Assembly: GCA_031427195.1 (NCBI GenBank)
Contig: JANPMZ010000239.1
Span: forward strand, 1-27,646
Reading direction: 5' to 3'
Source: Nitrospirota bacterium
Lineage (GTDB): Bacteria; Nitrospirota; UBA9217
DNA length: 27,646 bases
This document shows, piece after piece, positions 6,230 through 12,801 of this stretch. The translations under genes were made by a program, and so were the position numbers. The notes beneath the pieces are model-generated. The model was not told where the DNA came from and searched no databases. It saw only the letters and a program-made list of their open reading frames with translations. Numbering within the stretch: the first letter of the stretch is position 1; every line of letters starts with the position of its first letter.

Positions 6230-6925
6230 CTACGGACCGATCATTCCCTTATCGCGAAAACTGAAGTGCGTACCGTCGCCGATGATGATGTGGTCGAGAA
6301 CCCGGATGCCGAGCACCTCGCCGGCCTGCACCAGCCGTTTCGTGAGCAAAATATCTTCCTGGCTCGGCCGGGTATCGCCGCTCGGATGGTTATGGATGAA
6401 GATGACCGCGGCGGCTGATTCCCTGATGGCGGCTTTGAATGTCTCGCGCGGGTGGACGATGGATGCCGAGAGGCTCCCGACCGAGACCTCTTCGTTCCGA
6501 ATGATCTTGTTCTTGCTGTCAAGCAGGGCGCAGTGAAAGACCTCTTTCTTAAGGTCCTTCATGCGCGGCTGGTAATAGCTGATGACGTCATCGCAGGAAC
6601 AGAACGACTCACCGGTGAGCGACGGCAGCTGATACCGCTTCCCGATCTCGATAGCCGCCTTGATCTCGGCGGCCTTTGCCGGTCCGATACCGGGAACCTT
6701 GCGAATCTCATCAATACTCGCCTGGCCAAGCCCCGCAAGACCATCGAAGCGCGCGAGCAGTTCCATGCAGAGATCAAGCGCGGTCCGGCCCGCTTTTCCG
6801 TTCCTGATGATGATCGCGAGCAGGTGGGCATCCGACAATGACGAGGGGCCATGGGCGATCAGCCGTTCGCGCGGCCGCTCGTCTACGGGCCAGTTTTTTA
6901 CCGTTTTTCCGAACTCATTGGCCAT
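6230..6925 (-). CDS. radC: RadC (UPF0758) JAB-domain protein
   Basis: ERPRERL, LSDAHLLAII, HhH GIGPAKA, VHPRETF and HNHPSGD..PS.ED motifs. Confidence 0.93.
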   Translation of the reverse strand: MANEFGKTVKNWPVDERPRERLIAHGPSSLSDAHLLAIIIRNGKAGRTALDLCMELLARFDGLAGLGQASIDEIRKVPGIGPAKAAEIKAAIEIGKRYQLPSLTGESFCSCDDVISYYQPRMKDLKKEVFHCALLDSKNKIIRNEEVSVGSLSASIVHPRETFKAAIRESAAAVIFIHNHPSGDTRPSQEDILLTKRLVQAGEVLGIRVLDHIIIGDGTHFSFRDKGMIGP

Positions 6926-6971: not shown

Positions 6972-8492
6972 CTAAGACGAGACATGCTTCTCATCTTTAT
7001 CGGAACCAGGGGAATACTGGTGGTAGGTATGCATCCCGAGCTTCAATAATCCCTTTTCAATAAGGCGGCGGGCGGCTTCCGACACCTTTGGATCGAACTG
7101 TTTTCCTGCTTCCCGCTCCAGTTCGGCCATCACGTTTTCGGCAGAGATCATTCCGCGATAGGGGCGCTCCGACAGCATGGCATCCATCGTATCGGAGACG
7201 TTCAGCACGCGAGCAGCAAGTGTGATCTGTTCACCTGCCAATCCCCGCGGATATCCCTTGCCATCGTAGCGTTCGTGATGCTGGTAGATGGCATCGATAA
7301 TAGCCGGTGCAAACCCGATGGGTTCGAGGATCCTGAGTCCGTGCGCAGGATGATCTTTCATAATATCGAATTCTTCCCGGCTCAGGCGGTCCGGCTTGCT
7401 GATGATGCGCTCACTGATGCCGATCTTGCCCACGTCATGCAGAATGGAGGAAATATGGAGCTCCTCAAGCTGGGTGGGGCTCATACCCATATCGCGTCCC
7501 AGAGCGACGGCATATTTGGCGACATTCGTTGAATGCCACCGGGTATAGGGGTCCTTCGCCTCCACAGCCGCCACCAGCGCCTGGACCGTTCGAAAGTAGT
7601 TCTCGCGCAGGTTCTCGTAGAGGCCGGCATTTTCCATGGCCGTCACCACCTGGCTCGACAGGATCAGGAGCACCTGCAGGTCGCTGGTCGTAAAAGGCGG
7701 ATCAGCAAATTTGCTCACATTGAGCACGCCGAACATCTTGTCCCTGCCGATCAGCGGTACCGACATGGACGAGATCGGCATATTGTCGAGGTTCAGGGCC
7801 TCCATGACCTCCTGGTCGGCATGTTTGCCCCGCGATATGATCAGCGGTTTTCGGCTCTTGAGTACAAGCCCCGAGATCCCTTCACCGGTCCTGCGCCGGG
7901 CTTTCAGTGCCGTCTCCGTCGGCAACCCGTGTGAAGCGCGGATCACCAGGTTGTCGCTCTTCTCATCGAGCAGCATGAGCGAAACGCGCTCTACCGAGAA
8001 TTCCTGCACCAGGACCTCGGTGATGATCTTGAACAGGTGAGTAAGGTCGGTCTCGGTAACGAGCAGTTTACTGATCTCGAACAGGGGGATCAACGCCTTG
8101 AGCCTGATATTCTCCTTCTGGAGCCTGCTGCGATTCATTGAACGCTCGACCGTGCCGAGCAGTTCCTCCTGGGTGAACGGCTTCAATACAAACCCATCAA
8201 CGCCGCTCATCAGCGATTCGATGGCGGTATCGAGCGTGCCATGTCCCGTAATAAAGATGGTGACGATATCACGATTCAGCCCCTTGACCTGATCAAAAAG
8301 TTCCAACCCGTCCATCCCCGGCATCTTGATATCCGTGATGAGAAGATCGGTCATGTTCCGGTTCAGTTCCTCGAAGGCGGCCTTGCCGTTCGGTGCTGTC
8401 GTTACCAGGTAGCCCTCTGCCGACAGGATATGATAGCACAGGTCCCGGATCATTTCTTCATCATCAACTACCAATATCTTTTCACCGGCCAT
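6972..8492 (-). CDS. Response regulator with REC-GAF-HD-GYP architecture (predicted c-di-GMP phosphodiesterase)
   Basis: REC (VVDDE, ITDIKMP, FITG, LKPF), GAF, then HD-GYP (WHS, LHDVGKIG, HHERYDGKGYP, RPYR). ATG 8492 lies 9 nt after a GGAGGA SD; the track start at 8501 is a TTG abutting the SD. Confidence 0.92.
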   Translation of the reverse strand: MAGEKILVVDDEEMIRDLCYHILSAEGYLVTTAPNGKAAFEELNRNMTDLLITDIKMPGMDGLELFDQVKGLNRDIVTIFITGHGTLDTAIESLMSGVDGFVLKPFTQEELLGTVERSMNRSRLQKENIRLKALIPLFEISKLLVTETDLTHLFKIITEVLVQEFSVERVSLMLLDEKSDNLVIRASHGLPTETALKARRRTGEGISGLVLKSRKPLIISRGKHADQEVMEALNLDNMPISSMSVPLIGRDKMFGVLNVSKFADPPFTTSDLQVLLILSSQVVTAMENAGLYENLRENYFRTVQALVAAVEAKDPYTRWHSTNVAKYAVALGRDMGMSPTQLEELHISSILHDVGKIGISERIISKPDRLSREEFDIMKDHPAHGLRILEPIGFAPAIIDAIYQHHERYDGKGYPRGLAGEQITLAARVLNVSDTMDAMLSERPYRGMISAENVMAELEREAGKQFDPKVSEAARRLIEKGLLKLGMHTYHQYSPGSDKDEKHVSS

Positions 8493-8549
8493 TATGCTCA
8501 ATCCTCCATGGCGCTCGTCACGCCTGACTTTTTCGCATTAACCTTCGCC

Positions 8550-9998
8550 CTACACGTCCTGGACGGGAATGATCACTTTGAATATGGATCCCTTGTCCAC
8601 GGTACTCTCTACTTCAATCCTTCCGCCATGGTTCTGCACGATCATGTAACTGATCGACAACCCCAGCCCCGTACCCCCGCCATCCGGCCGGGCTGAAAAG
8701 AAAGGGTCAAATATTTTATCCAGCTGTTCTTCGGGGATCCCATGGCCGGTATCGGCAAACTCCACGATGACGGATTGCCGCCCCGTGATATCCTGGTCCA
8801 CCCGGCACCGGATAGCAAGGCTGCCGCCTTTGGGCATCGCAAAGCACGCATTGTTGATAAGATTGACAAATACCTGCCGTATCTCATCGACGTCGATCGA
8901 GACCTGCGGGAGACTGTCGTCACAGGACGTGGTGATAACAATATTACTTAATTTTGCCTGTCCCTTGATGAGCGGTATCGTATCCTGGACAACCATGTTC
9001 ATGCCGGCCTTCACCAGCCGTGGCGGCTTTCTCCGTGAAAAATCCAGAAGATTCTTCAGGATCTCCCGGGCACGAAGCGTCTCCCGTTCCACGATTTTCA
9101 AATGTTCTTTTTTGTCAGCGGGAATATCGTCGGCCTTGAGCAACAGACCGGTATATCCCAAGACACCGGTCAGCGGGTTGTTCACCTCGTAGGCGATATT
9201 CGTTGCCAGTTCACCGATAGCGGCCAGCTTTGCACTCTGCATCAGCTTGCGTTGCGACACGTGAAGGTTGTGCGTCATGGTGTTGAACGCTTCTCCCAGT
9301 TCCGTAAACTCGCTCCCCCAGGCATCCGTAATCTTAACCCGGTGCAGAAGTTCACCGCGGGCAATTCGCCGGGTCGCTTCGAGGAGTTCCTGGAGCCTCC
9401 GGTCAAGTCCCTTTATCTGCGTATAGGCGATGATAAACGCAAGTGCCAAACCCAGCAGAAGGGTGACCGAAAGCACCCAGCGTACCTCACGAATCGTGGT
9501 CATAGTTTCCTGCGTTTTCTGCTGGAGCCGGACATTGGCAGTAAATGCCATGCCCTGGGTCATCGTAATAAGTTCTTGCCCGAGGTCCTGCGCACGGCGC
9601 TCGAGCCCTGCGATACGCGACGAGTTCGCCGATGCGGTTATAAGTCGGCTGATCGCGCTTTTGTAATCGTTCGCCACGTCCCGCATCGAGACGAGCCCCT
9701 GGTGCAGCTCCGGAGAATGGTGACAACCGATACAGGAGTCCATTGTCCGGTCCATCTCCTGCACCTGACTGATGAGCACATCAATATCGCCACTATCCCT
9801 GATCCTGCTGCGGTAGATGTGCGACTGCACCTGCTGAATGCGAATGATCAGGTCCTCGCGGAGGATCTCAACCTGATAGAGCAGGACCAGGCGATCCATC
9901 CTGTCGGTGGTCCTCGTGATGTACAGCACTGCAATGATGCTCCCCGCCAAAAATATCAGCAACAGCAAGCCAAAGCCCAATAGAATTCTTTTTTTCAT
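8550..9998 (-). CDS. Membrane sensor histidine-kinase-like protein (periplasmic CxxCH, HAMP, HisKA with His->Tyr, HATPase)
   Basis: Two TM helices flank a periplasmic domain containing CIGCH. HAMP follows. The H-box reads AYEVNNPL. N, G1, F and G2 boxes are present. Confidence 0.9.
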   Translation of the reverse strand: MKKRILLGFGLLLLIFLAGSIIAVLYITRTTDRMDRLVLLYQVEILREDLIIRIQQVQSHIYRSRIRDSGDIDVLISQVQEMDRTMDSCIGCHHSPELHQGLVSMRDVANDYKSAISRLITASANSSRIAGLERRAQDLGQELITMTQGMAFTANVRLQQKTQETMTTIREVRWVLSVTLLLGLALAFIIAYTQIKGLDRRLQELLEATRRIARGELLHRVKITDAWGSEFTELGEAFNTMTHNLHVSQRKLMQSAKLAAIGELATNIAYEVNNPLTGVLGYTGLLLKADDIPADKKEHLKIVERETLRAREILKNLLDFSRRKPPRLVKAGMNMVVQDTIPLIKGQAKLSNIVITTSCDDSLPQVSIDVDEIRQVFVNLINNACFAMPKGGSLAIRCRVDQDITGRQSVIVEFADTGHGIPEEQLDKIFDPFFSARPDGGGTGLGLSISYMIVQNHGGRIEVESTVDKGSIFKVIIPVQDV

Positions 9999-10131
9999 GG
10001 ATTATTCCATCACCTGTTGGTATCCTTCTGCGCATATCCCTTGACCACTAAGGGCCGCGGTTTTTCCTACGTGCAGGCAGTTCATGGAGACAACCGTATG
10101 AACGACACGCCGCCTGCAAACCCATTTCTTT

Positions 10132-12258
10132 TCATGCCGTCGTCTCCTCCTTCTGGCTGTCGGACTGGGCCATGATTGGCGTTTTTTGATAAAGCGGGAG
10201 CGTCACCCGGAAAACAGTGCCCTGGCCGACCTGACTTGCAGCTTCGACCGTGCCGCCATGATTCTGAATAATACGATAGCTGATTGAAAGACCGAGGCCG
10301 GTGCCATCACCGTTCTCCTTGGTCGAAAAAAATGGCTCGAAGATCTTGTCTAAATTTTCCGGCGCGATACCTACACCGGTATCACCAAACTCTACAACAA
10401 CCTGATAGTCCCGCACCATGCTAAGCCGGACCCGGAACTCGCCGCCCGATGGCATGGCCTGCAGTGCATTATACGCTATGTTTATGAAGACCTGCTTGAT
10501 CTCATCATGGTCCATATTGACCATGACCGGAGTTTCCGGGTACTCCTCTACAACACGGACAGCGGAGGATTCCGCCATACCTTGCACAAGCGCGATCGTT
10601 TCCTTGATCGGCATAAGCAGGTCGGCAGGATGCATCCAGGAAGGTTTCTGCCGGGAAAAATCCAGGAGGTTTCTGATGATCTTTCTCACCCGCAGCGTTT
10701 CCTGCTCCATCATGCCAAGCATCCGCCTGGGGGTCTCTGCCAGGTCAACCGTTTTCAGAAGGTAGGTCGTATAACCAAGCACGCTCGTCAAAGGATTATT
10801 GATCTCATGGGCGACGTTCGCGGCAAGCTCGCCGATCGCGGCCATCTTCGACGAATGAACCAGTTGCTGCTGCGCACTTTTCAGCTCCAGCATTTTTTCC
10901 TTAAGGTCCGTATACAGCGAAGCATTCTGCAGTGCCGCCCCGGCAAGGTTTCCAAAGACCGTAAACAAACGCAGATCATGTTTGTCAAAGCTGGCGCCGC
11001 CCTTTTTATTGACAACCGTGAGCAGGCCGGTCAAGGTATTCGATGACCAGAGTGGTACCATCATGAGAGTCTTGACCCCGAGTGTTTTCATTCGATCGCC
11101 GTCTAACCTGAAATCAGACTGCGCATCCGGAATAAGGAGCGGCGTTCCATAGCAGGCGAGCCAGTTGTAGATCCCCCCTGTTTCGAGCGGAAGTTCCTGT
11201 TCCATGAGCAGCTGTTTTTTGCTTCCATGCACACCAAGATACTGCAGCGTAAAGCTCTTCTTGTTTAAAACCGATACAGCCGTCGTGTCGGCCCGGACAA
11301 GATCATCTGCACGCGCAGCGATTTTGGTCACAAGGGTGTCGAGCTCAAGGCTCTCCATCAGGTCCAGACCGGCGGTATGGAGGATGAACAGATCTCTGTT
11401 CCAGCTGGACAAACTGGCTTCCCGCTGCTTCAACGTAAGCGCCATCTGGTTAAAGGCATGACCGAGTTTGCTGATCTCGTCATTTCCTTTGACCGGGAGC
11501 GGCGTTTCCCAGTTTTGCTGACTCAGCATGTCAGCAGCATCGCTGAGCGTGCGTATTGGTTTCGTGATGCTGATGGTAATAATCTGACTGAACGCCATTC
11601 CCACCAGGAGAATGCCAATGAGCGCAACAGATGCTTTTTTTACCAATCCGGTAAATTTTTCCGCATACCGCTGGCTGGACACACCGACCCGGACAAAACC
11701 GGCCAGATCCTGACCCGCCATGACCGGAACGGTGAGATCGTAGACCCCAGCCTGTTTAAATAAAAAAACGGGCGCAGTCGCTCTCCTCATCTCGGGACTG
11801 AGAGAGACGTCGTCAATCATCATTTTGTTGCCAGTCGGCAACGTGTAAAAATATGAATCGCTGTTAAAGAACGCCGCCGTGGCACTACTGCCGATGATGA
11901 GCGTCCCGTCATGCCGATATATCATGATATAGAGGAGATCGCTTCCGGTGTGTACCTCGTCCTCTGGCACTAGGAGCGGGATCAGTTTCTTGTAGATATC
12001 GTGACGATTTTCGGTAATAATATCATCCAGCGTCAGCGCGGAAAGCTCGCGGGCGACAGACAGAGCACGACCGCGAATTTCCACATCAAGCATCGCCGTC
12101 CCTTCCCGATAAAAGAACATTCCAATAAAGAATGAGACAAGCAAAAGGGCTACCGCAATAAAGAAAGAGACCCTGCAGCCAACTCCTCCCCACCGCCGCG
12201 CGGCGAACTGGTGCATGCGTGCCAAGAGGTGAGAAATCATTTTCTTTTTGTCAGTCAT
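10132..12258 (-). CDS. Membrane sensor histidine kinase (periplasmic sensor, HAMP, GAF, HisKA, HATPase)
   Basis: TM-periplasmic-TM, HAMP ([13 protein letters not shown]), GAF, canonical H-box [14 protein letters not shown] and GTGLGLSIS. Start uncertain (12291, 12258, 12240 or 12216); 12258 chosen because 12291 overlaps a likely -10. Confidence 0.9.
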
Positions 12259-12281
12259 AGAAGAATTAAAATACCTGTAGA

Positions 12282-12290
12282 ATTTTAACA
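12282..12290 (-). promoter_or_regulatory. Putative extended -10 promoter of the signalling operon
   Basis: TGtTAAAAT in an AT-rich tract immediately downstream of the rplQ terminator; no clear -35. Confidence 0.4.
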
Positions 12291-12312
12291 TAATATTTCA
12301 TATAAACGCCAT

Positions 12313-12345
12313 AAAAAACGGCAAGGGATTAATTCCCTTGCCGTT
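12313..12345 (-). terminator. Rho-independent terminator of the ribosomal superoperon
   Basis: Minus strand AACGGCAAGGGA-ATTAA-TCCCTTGCCG-TTTTTT: perfect GC-rich stem with a U6 tail, ~50 nt after the rplQ stop. Confidence 0.92.
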
Positions 12346-12396: not shown

Positions 12397-12801
12397 CTAC
12401 GCTTTGGCTATTTCTGCACCCTTCGCCCCGGGTGTTTCCTGCTTTTTGCGTTCAATAAGCTCGATTACGGCCATGGGAGCTGCATCACCGGGCCGGTTTC
12501 GGGTCAGGACAATTCTGGTATATCCCCCGTTCCTGGTTGCAAAACGCGGGGCAATACTGGTGAAAAGACCGCTTACCACTGATTCATCGTTAATAAAACT
12601 GAGCGCCTGCCGTCTCGCATGAAGATCACCCCGTTTACCCAGCGTGATCATTTTTTCAGCCAACGGTCTGAGCTCCTTGGCCTTTGCCACGGTAGTTTCG
12701 ATCTTTTCGTTCTTCAGGAGTGCTATCACGAGCATCCGGAGCAATGCTTTCCGGTGCGAACTATCTCTCCCAAACTGCCTGCCTGTACATGCATGTCTCA
12801 T
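12397..12801 (-). CDS. rplQ: 50S ribosomal protein bL17
   Basis: MRH...[27 protein letters not shown] and [11 protein letters not shown]; follows rpoA. Confidence 0.97.

Follow-up and report, generated by a model that had tools for sequence, protein, structure and literature searches.

A kinase homologue with tyrosine at the phospho-acceptor site and a predicted haem c sensor, encoded beside an HD-GYP response regulator in uncultured Nitrospirota

The window analysed here is the whole of positions 1-27,646 of contig JANPMZ010000239.1, from a Nitrospirota bacterium (UBA9217), and all coordinates of the locus are given in window numbering. Open reading frame and domain calls place three long genes within 6972-12291 of the minus strand, encoding two sensor histidine kinase homologues, HK1 and HK2, and a response regulator (RR). 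The gene order on that strand is rpoA-rplQ, a terminator-like hairpin, HK1, HK2, RR and radC. The ribosomal cluster ends with rplQ (12397-12801, minus strand; ribosomal protein L17, Pfam Ribosomal_L17, E = 1e-38), and between it and HK1 the sequence reads as a GC hairpin followed by a T-run (12307-12338, minus strand; 12323-12307 in a consensus scan). The promoter and terminator consensus scan of the window gave sites no commoner than in shuffled sequences and the hairpin is a sequence-level match only; an Rfam search of the window matched no RNA family. A first-pass annotation of this DNA had described three co-oriented genes following a ribosomal terminator, with a canonical His in HK1, a His-to-Tyr replacement in HK2 and an intact Asp in RR. 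The open reading frames, their domains, rpoA and rplQ, and the hairpin with its T-run at about 12307-12338 bear out this arrangement, and the three site assignments hold as well (H-boxes AHEINNPL in HK1 and AYEVNNPL in HK2; Asp57 in RR). In public sequencing runs the DNA of the window is found in freshwater sediment, sediment and groundwater metagenomes; the runs listed with this DNA include none of RNA.

HK1 (10132-12291, minus strand; 719 residues) has a transmembrane helix (TM), an sCache-like periplasmic domain, a second TM and, from Pfam, HAMP, GAF, HisKA and HATPase_c, with the canonical His495 in its H-box. Its periplasmic part matches sCache_3_2 below threshold (24.3 bits against a cut-off of 28.4), and in an AlphaFold2 model of residues 12-300 a long helix leads into a sheet of five strands (predicted local distance difference test score, pLDDT, 69), which suggests with modest confidence a Cache-like fold. 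The true start is probably Met12, the ATG at 12258, where the alignments of orthologues begin; these orthologues are 54-87% identical.

RR (6972-8501, minus strand) has the architecture REC-GAF-HD-GYP, from Pfam matches to Response_reg (2e-28), GAF_2 (6e-16) and HD_5 (2e-35), the last spanning positions 3-170 of the 170 in the profile. Its start is probably the ATG at 8492, which has a GGAGG 8 nt upstream. With the acceptor Asp57 in REC and the motifs HDVGK and GKGYP, RR has the sequence features of a response regulator with an HD-GYP cyclic di-GMP (c-di-GMP) phosphodiesterase output, and TDIKMP, HDVGK and HHERYDGKGYP are kept in 21 orthologues. The nearest NCBIfam model is that of the NosR family of nitric oxide (NO)-responsive regulators, NF053512; RR scores 216.6 bits against its cut-off of 400 and the match is confined to the HD-GYP part. 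In the RpfC-RpfG system, phosphorylation of REC controls an HD-GYP c-di-GMP phosphodiesterase. RR departs from the RpfG type in having a GAF domain between REC and HD-GYP and in being served by up to three kinase-like proteins.

HK2 (8550-9998, minus strand; 482 residues) consists, from Pfam and a structural model taken together, of TM1, a four-helix bundle with a CxxCHH motif, TM2, HAMP, HisKA and HATPase_c, the latter two domains scoring 49.3 and 90 bits. The HisKA and HATPase_c domains and the N, G1, F and G2 boxes of a functional HisKA kinase are all present, but the acceptor His is not: in the H-box, Tyr270 takes its place (codon TAC at 9189-9191, minus strand). Among 5.8 billion proteins searched, 120 orthologues of HK2 were found at 68-100% identity, of which 118 could be scored at the His site. 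Tyr occupies the site in about 113 of these, His in three and Cys in one, and nearly all carry CxxCH at residue 89. At the level of genomes, Tyr is found in 18 of the 19 species representatives of the family that have HK2; G023 alone has His. Contigs of runs X2, X5 and X6, from another study, that cover the Tyr270 codon show no difference from the window there. Given the independent contigs and the Tyr in about 113 of 118 orthologues, Tyr270 is neither chance nor an assembly error. For the first-pass annotation, orthologues that keep His would have counted against its reading; instead, the exceptions to Tyr amount to one small His clade, one Cys sequence and one degenerate lineage. HK2 is also the sole protein lacking the His among the 20 motif-detected HisKA kinases of the source genome.

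Around the altered site HK2 is well preserved. By mean column identity among the orthologues, the dimerization and histidine phosphotransfer domain (DHp) is the best-conserved part of the protein (0.92), followed by the periplasmic domain (0.85) and the catalytic and ATP-binding domain (CA; 0.76). Directly after the acceptor position, in Y-E-V-N-N-P, stands the E-x-x-N phosphatase motif; Glu271, Asn273 and Pro275 are invariant, as is the F box; Asn274 shows at least 90% conservation, and the N, G1 and G2 boxes are conserved too. The alignment indicates that HK2 is under purifying selection. Since Tyr270 replaces the acceptor, HK2 would be unable to form phospho-His.

Three departures from the common form of HK2 deserve mention. 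A small clade of orthologues has an acceptor His (AAIIAHEVNNPL; L039:5396-6841 in G023, P0065, P0067 and P0071). In a tree with a moderately supported backbone it is a single clade nested among Tyr-bearing sequences, most economically explained by reversion of Tyr to His, and its members are possibly working kinases. P0132 (L133:5001-6440) is a divergent homologue in which Gly takes the place of the acceptor His and Lys stands at both H+1 and H+4; neither HisKA nor HAMP was recognised in it by profile, while CxxCHH and HATPase_c are kept, and its gene (HK2') occupies the unchanged slot in the order rpoA-rplQ-HK1-HK2'-RR-HK3, where HK3 is a further kinase described below. In a genome of the same genus (G002:C2:161984-163253) the match to HK2 lies in two frames, with a TGA within the second piece, and is either a broken copy or an error in a nine-contig assembly.

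The N-terminus of HK2 is rich in Lys and Arg. Two hydrophobic helices flank a helical domain, about 145 residues long, with the sequence C89-I-G-C92-H93-H94 (codons 9717-9734, minus strand), which comprises the c-type haem attachment motif and a second conserved His. An AlphaFold2 model from a 42-sequence alignment shows a bundle of four helices that runs on into TM1 and TM2 (helices 2-63, 69-90, 96-121 and 126-204; pLDDT 77). The turn joining helices 2 and 3 carries CxxCHH; from the helix lengths this turn would be the membrane-proximal end of a short hairpin. The best PDB structure match is 4k0d (Adeh_2942; TM-score 0.84, target-normalised), followed by NarQ and PcaY, and the QseG-QseE complex is also among the fold matches; Foldseek against the PDB gave none at E ≤ 0.001, the best being 2.7e-3. 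Matches in the AlphaFold Database are to 4HB_MCP, CHASE3 and kinase sensors. On the TM-scores and these matches the domain is modelled as a Tar/NarX/4HB_MCP-like four-helix bundle.

No Pfam match was found for this domain at E ≤ 0.1 in HK2, or at E ≤ 1e-5 in 80 full-length members of its family. A profile search of 1.84 billion proteins gave 363 clusters at 50% identity, of which 159 matched with E ≤ 1e-30, and no Pfam family covers this CxxCHH four-helix-bundle group (proteins P0124-P0273). Among 136 representatives Cys89, Cys92 and His93 are invariant, His94 is kept in 135, Arg47 in 97% and His41 in 94%. Some 60 of the 80 full-length members are kinases, 19 have REC, five GGDEF and four EAL. 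All but one of the 80 run on into HAMP, and the family occurs in uncultured sediment and groundwater bacteria. Genes for ResB and CcsA-type proteins of cytochrome c maturation are present in the source genome, and together with the CxxCH motif between TM1 and TM2 these are the sequence marks of a c-type haem sensor. We infer that the periplasmic domain of HK2 binds c-type haem covalently at CxxCH.

CxxCH motifs in the extracytoplasmic sensors of signalling proteins have precedents in DcrA, GSU0582/GSU0935 and Tll0287/sCache_haem. Nitrospirota and Desulfobacterota are enriched in such periplasmic c-type haem sensors, and NO is a ligand of some of them (PMC8396549, PMC12889525). The known haem c sensors have PAS or Cache folds (PF11845), in contrast to the HK2 domain, which is without a Pfam match and is modelled as a Tar/NarX-like bundle; specifically, it gave no profile match to sCache_haem/Tll0287 PF11845 and its model is all-helical. 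Literature searches, of incomplete coverage, gave no description of a CxxCHH or four-helix-bundle haem c sensor domain.

The source genome is unusual at one position of this domain. Residue 41, in periplasmic helix 1 (codon 9876-9878, minus strand), is Tyr in the source genome and His in all other scorable orthologues of HK2, 116 by motif and three by eye. Contigs of X2 and X5, from the other study, agree with the window at this codon, and Tyr occurs here in five of the 136 family representatives. Within helix 1, position 41 is second in conservation to Arg47 and, by helix register only, is a candidate distal haem ligand. At the start of HAMP, residue 201 (9396-9398) is Arg in orthologues of HK2 as against Pro in 88% of the sensor family.

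The cores of HK1 and HK2 are 49% identical and form sister clades in the tree (support 97/93), in agreement with the earlier description of them as close paralogues. His-bearing CxxCHH kinases of the same core type branch just outside HK1 and HK2; of these P0141 comes closest to HK2, with identities of 40% for the sensor and 50% for the core. We had entertained the idea that HK2 arose when a foreign haem sensor was joined to a copy of the HK1 core, on the basis that HK2 is 31-34% (sensor) and 32-33% (core) identical to local paralogues as against 49% to HK1. Such a fusion is unneeded, as His-bearing CxxCHH kinases such as P0141 share the core type; what stands is the sister relationship of the HK1 and HK2 cores. 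At DHp positions H+7, 8, 11 and 12, which published work ties to partner choice, HK1 has TSGY, HK2 TGGY and HK3 NAGA, and the T-S/G-G-Y pattern is unique to HK1 and HK2 among the HisKA kinases of the source genome. The DHp hairpin loop of HK1, by comparison, differs strongly from that of HK2.

A variable set of sensor kinases flanks an invariant RR after rplQ throughout the family. An RR orthologue is present in 24 of the 24 family genomes first sampled, and 17 of the 20 related loci read have it closely 3' of rpoA-rplQ, orthologues of rplQ being found upstream. HK2 stands immediately upstream of RR in 18 of 18 loci read. It was found in 34 of 63 family genomes, a search of 238 genomes from elsewhere in the phylum gave none, and it is thus confined to one family of uncultured Nitrospirota. 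The layout HK1-HK2-RR after rplQ is shared by this window and six others, and a second layout, with a binding-protein gene between HK1 and HK2, was read in seven loci and by coordinates is also that of G022. The synteny expected by the first-pass annotation is therefore real across the family, but the kinases around RR vary. Three genomes (G006, G014 and G018) have HK1-RR without HK2, two (G015 and G017) have RR alone, and relatives carry the extra binding protein or HK3. Two further genomes have HK2 and RR without HK1: the layout is HK2-RR in G007 (89% complete) and binding protein-HK2-RR-HK3 in G011 (100% complete). A search of both for an HK1 orthologue found none, and in both HK2 is Tyr-bearing.

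Our preferred model is that HK1 and HK2 act on the same regulator in opposite senses. HK1, the sole kinase of the locus in the source genome able to make phospho-His, would be the phosphodonor to Asp57 of RR, and phosphate on Asp57 would govern the c-di-GMP-hydrolysing activity of the HD-GYP domain. HK2 would be a kinase-dead modulator directed at RR, most likely a phosphatase of phosphorylated RR or, failing catalysis, a binder, with its activity set by the four-helix bundle whose covalent c-type haem would report redox state or a gas ligand. The HK1 signal would then add phosphate to RR, and the haem signal of HK2 would remove or sequester it. We put the probability that HK2 is a haem-gated, kinase-dead phosphatase or binder of phosphorylated RR at roughly 45%. 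The conserved DHp, the specificity residues shared with HK1, the E-x-x-N motif and the intact nucleotide pocket lead us to read HK2 as a modulator directed at RR. Retention of HK2 with RR in G011 and G007, where HK1 was not found, means that HK2 probably acts on RR and not solely via HK1. The lineage without an H-box, whose gene nevertheless remains at its usual place in the operon, is in keeping with pseudokinase status.

The predicted complex of HK2 (residues 245-482, two copies) with REC (residues 4-125) scored 0.59 against 0.01 for the best control, with contacts agreeing to at least 81% between runs and a partner pLDDT of at least 78. Of the 78 solved complexes and 108 mismatched pairs in the benchmark of this test, 51 and two, respectively, reached the mark; at scores of 0.60 or below the solved complexes contributed only five passes, and the four mismatches that passed all lay in that range. 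The result lends weak support to an HK2-REC complex and may reflect likeness to solved kinase-regulator complexes.

Work on other HisKA proteins bears on the phosphatase part of the model. The E/D-x-x-N/T motif is required for HisKA phosphatase activity (PMC3510030); in CrdS and EnvZ the His is dispensable for this activity and Asn or Thr at H+4 is essential, PleC being the counter-example. Several points tell against the proposal. DivL of Caulobacter crescentus is without kinase and phosphatase activity (PMC4211667) and PleC H610A loses phosphatase activity; retention of E-x-x-N is therefore no proof of activity. The P0132 lineage has also lost E-x-x-N, and a non-catalytic role fits it better. 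The conserved ATP boxes are equally compatible with trans-phosphorylation of HK1 in a heterodimer. The patchy distribution of HK2 in the family implies that it is dispensable, and with Tyr in place of the near-invariant His41 the haem chemistry of the source genome's HK2 may differ from the family norm.

The closest published parallel is DivL itself, which like HK2 has HisKA and HATPase domains and a lineage-conserved Tyr (Tyr550) at the acceptor position (PMC4211667). DivL docks its response regulator on the DHp surface within a multi-kinase circuit and senses phosphorylated DivK (PMC4211667). A silent sensor of this kind, with DHp binding phosphorylated RR and relaying information or sequestering or localising RR, having neither kinase nor phosphatase activity, would accord with the His-to-Tyr change common to the two proteins, with the standing of DHp as the most conserved domain of HK2, and with the persistence in the operon of the one lineage that lacks the H-box, E-x-x-N included. 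DivL, however, is cytoplasmic, carries PAS domains and binds ATP analogues weakly, whereas in nearly all orthologues of HK2 the nucleotide boxes and E-x-x-N are constrained. HK2 also has an extracytoplasmic sensor of its own, a strongly conserved CxxCHH four-helix bundle in the periplasm followed by HAMP, which suggests the usual outside-in signalling. The HK2 gene, unlike that of DivL, lies beside an HD-GYP regulator, and HK2 does not share the PAS architecture of DivL, nor probably its descent, being built of TM, four-helix bundle, TM and HAMP with a core sister to that of HK1. Because that sister is His-bearing, the Tyr common to HK2 and DivL is best read as convergence. We judge a purely DivL-like role for HK2 to be unlikely. 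Tyrosine phosphorylation of DivL was reportedly seen in early studies, which might encourage the view that HK2 is still a phosphodonor, autophosphorylating Tyr270 or another residue and passing the phosphate to RR or a different protein; the intact ATP site and the invariant acidic residue Glu271 could be taken the same way. Later work found no autokinase activity in DivL (PMC4211667), the DHp of HK2 holds no other well-conserved His (His299 is kept in only about 60%), and transfer from phospho-Tyr to Asp is not an established two-component reaction, all of which make a donor role very doubtful.

HK2 might alternatively act through HK1, by DHp heterodimers or RetS-GacS-like complexes that block HK1 autophosphorylation, or by trans-phosphorylating the HK1 His, the haem thereby gating HK1 output. 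The sister relationship of the two cores and their adjacent genes in most loci favour this route, as do ATP-binding boxes conserved in a protein with no acceptor His, and kinase-kinase inhibition by a DHp interface is established for RetS-GacS (PMC8498467). In that and other multikinase networks several sensor kinases share one output, with one serving as modulator and not donor (PMC8498467, PMC5992135), but RetS has retained the His and is directed at GacS, whereas HK2 has lost the His and also occurs where a partner kinase was not found. The first-pass annotation had made HK1 the sole phosphodonor and had HK2 heterodimerise with it or act as a phosphatase; the Tyr-bearing HK2 of G011 and G007, next to RR with no HK1 found, rules out heterodimerisation as a general rule, although it may take place in the source genome, and those two genomes and the HK3 of relatives contradict a sole-donor rule. 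Published work assigns dimer specificity to the region of the DHp hairpin loop, and it is in this loop that HK1 and HK2 are so different. An effect exerted through HK1 therefore seems to us improbable. That HK2 is a decaying, functionless duplicate and Tyr a neutral lesion would agree with the patchy family distribution, the split copy with an in-frame stop in G002 and the degenerate lineage. It is hardly credible beside more than 100 intact orthologues, 57-95% identical, that keep an invariant CxxCHH, a DHp conserved at 0.92 and the same Tyr throughout.

A broader proposal goes beyond the preferred model of HK2 as a modulator of phosphorylated RR and is correspondingly more tentative. A bifunctional sensor kinase may have been divided between two paralogues with separate sensors, HK1 taking the kinase activity and HK2 the opposing one, as a dedicated haem c-gated phosphatase or trans-acting ATP-dependent modulator with a sensor from an undescribed CxxCHH four-helix-bundle haem c family; HK2 would then be an ancient, family-wide His-to-Tyr variant, and its sensor family would feed kinases, hybrid kinases and GGDEF/EAL enzymes of sediment bacteria. 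Taken as a whole we regard this as possible but distinctly uncertain. Each ingredient is known: the Tyr pseudokinase from DivL, multikinase networks from RetS-GacS, the REC-HD-GYP output and periplasmic haem c sensors. A limited literature check gave no description of their combination, of a protein of this kind that retains ATP and phosphatase motifs, of the tight linkage to RR or of the CxxCHH four-helix-bundle sensor family. Few histidine pseudokinases are understood, DivL being the main case and PsmA a recent addition. HK2 stands apart from both in keeping its nucleotide pocket and phosphatase motif, in having its own extracytoplasmic cofactor-type sensor and in being encoded beside its presumed target. 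The system bears on what a kinase fold does after loss of the His, on how two inputs are integrated at one c-di-GMP phosphodiesterase and on whether a single Tyr-to-His reversion, apparent in one clade, restores kinase activity. In the sediments and groundwater where the sensor family has its hosts, redox and nitrogen-oxide sensing are ecologically central.

The remaining variation of the locus concerns genes that relatives carry and the window does not. The 133 bp spacer between HK1 and HK2 (9999-10131) is occupied in eight related loci by a gene for a PhnD-like periplasmic binding lipoprotein of about 306-317 residues (PF12974, E = 1.5e-65), which directly precedes HK2 (L022:6145-7065, L029:4317-5270 and six more). 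P0141 (L052) is likewise preceded by a PhnD-like gene, with the stop and start overlapping. Pairs of a binding protein with a helical sensor kinase are known in TorT-TorS and QseG-QseE, and by analogy the gene order suggests that the PhnD-like protein and HK2 form a pair of the TorT-TorS kind, lost in the window, although the binding protein of the relatives, being PhnD-like, is unlike those of the two known pairs.

On the other side of RR, 11 related loci (L022:1479-3146, L024:7483-9204 and nine others) carry HK3, a cytoplasmic PAS-PAS-HisKA-HATPase kinase of about 560 residues whose gene often overlaps the RR stop codon. An orthologue of HK3 was not found in the source genome, which is 91% complete. 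Comparison of the loci indicates that the ancestral locus also held the PhnD-like binding protein and HK3; in the window, the next same-strand gene 3' of RR, standing in the position of HK3, is radC (6230-6925, minus strand).

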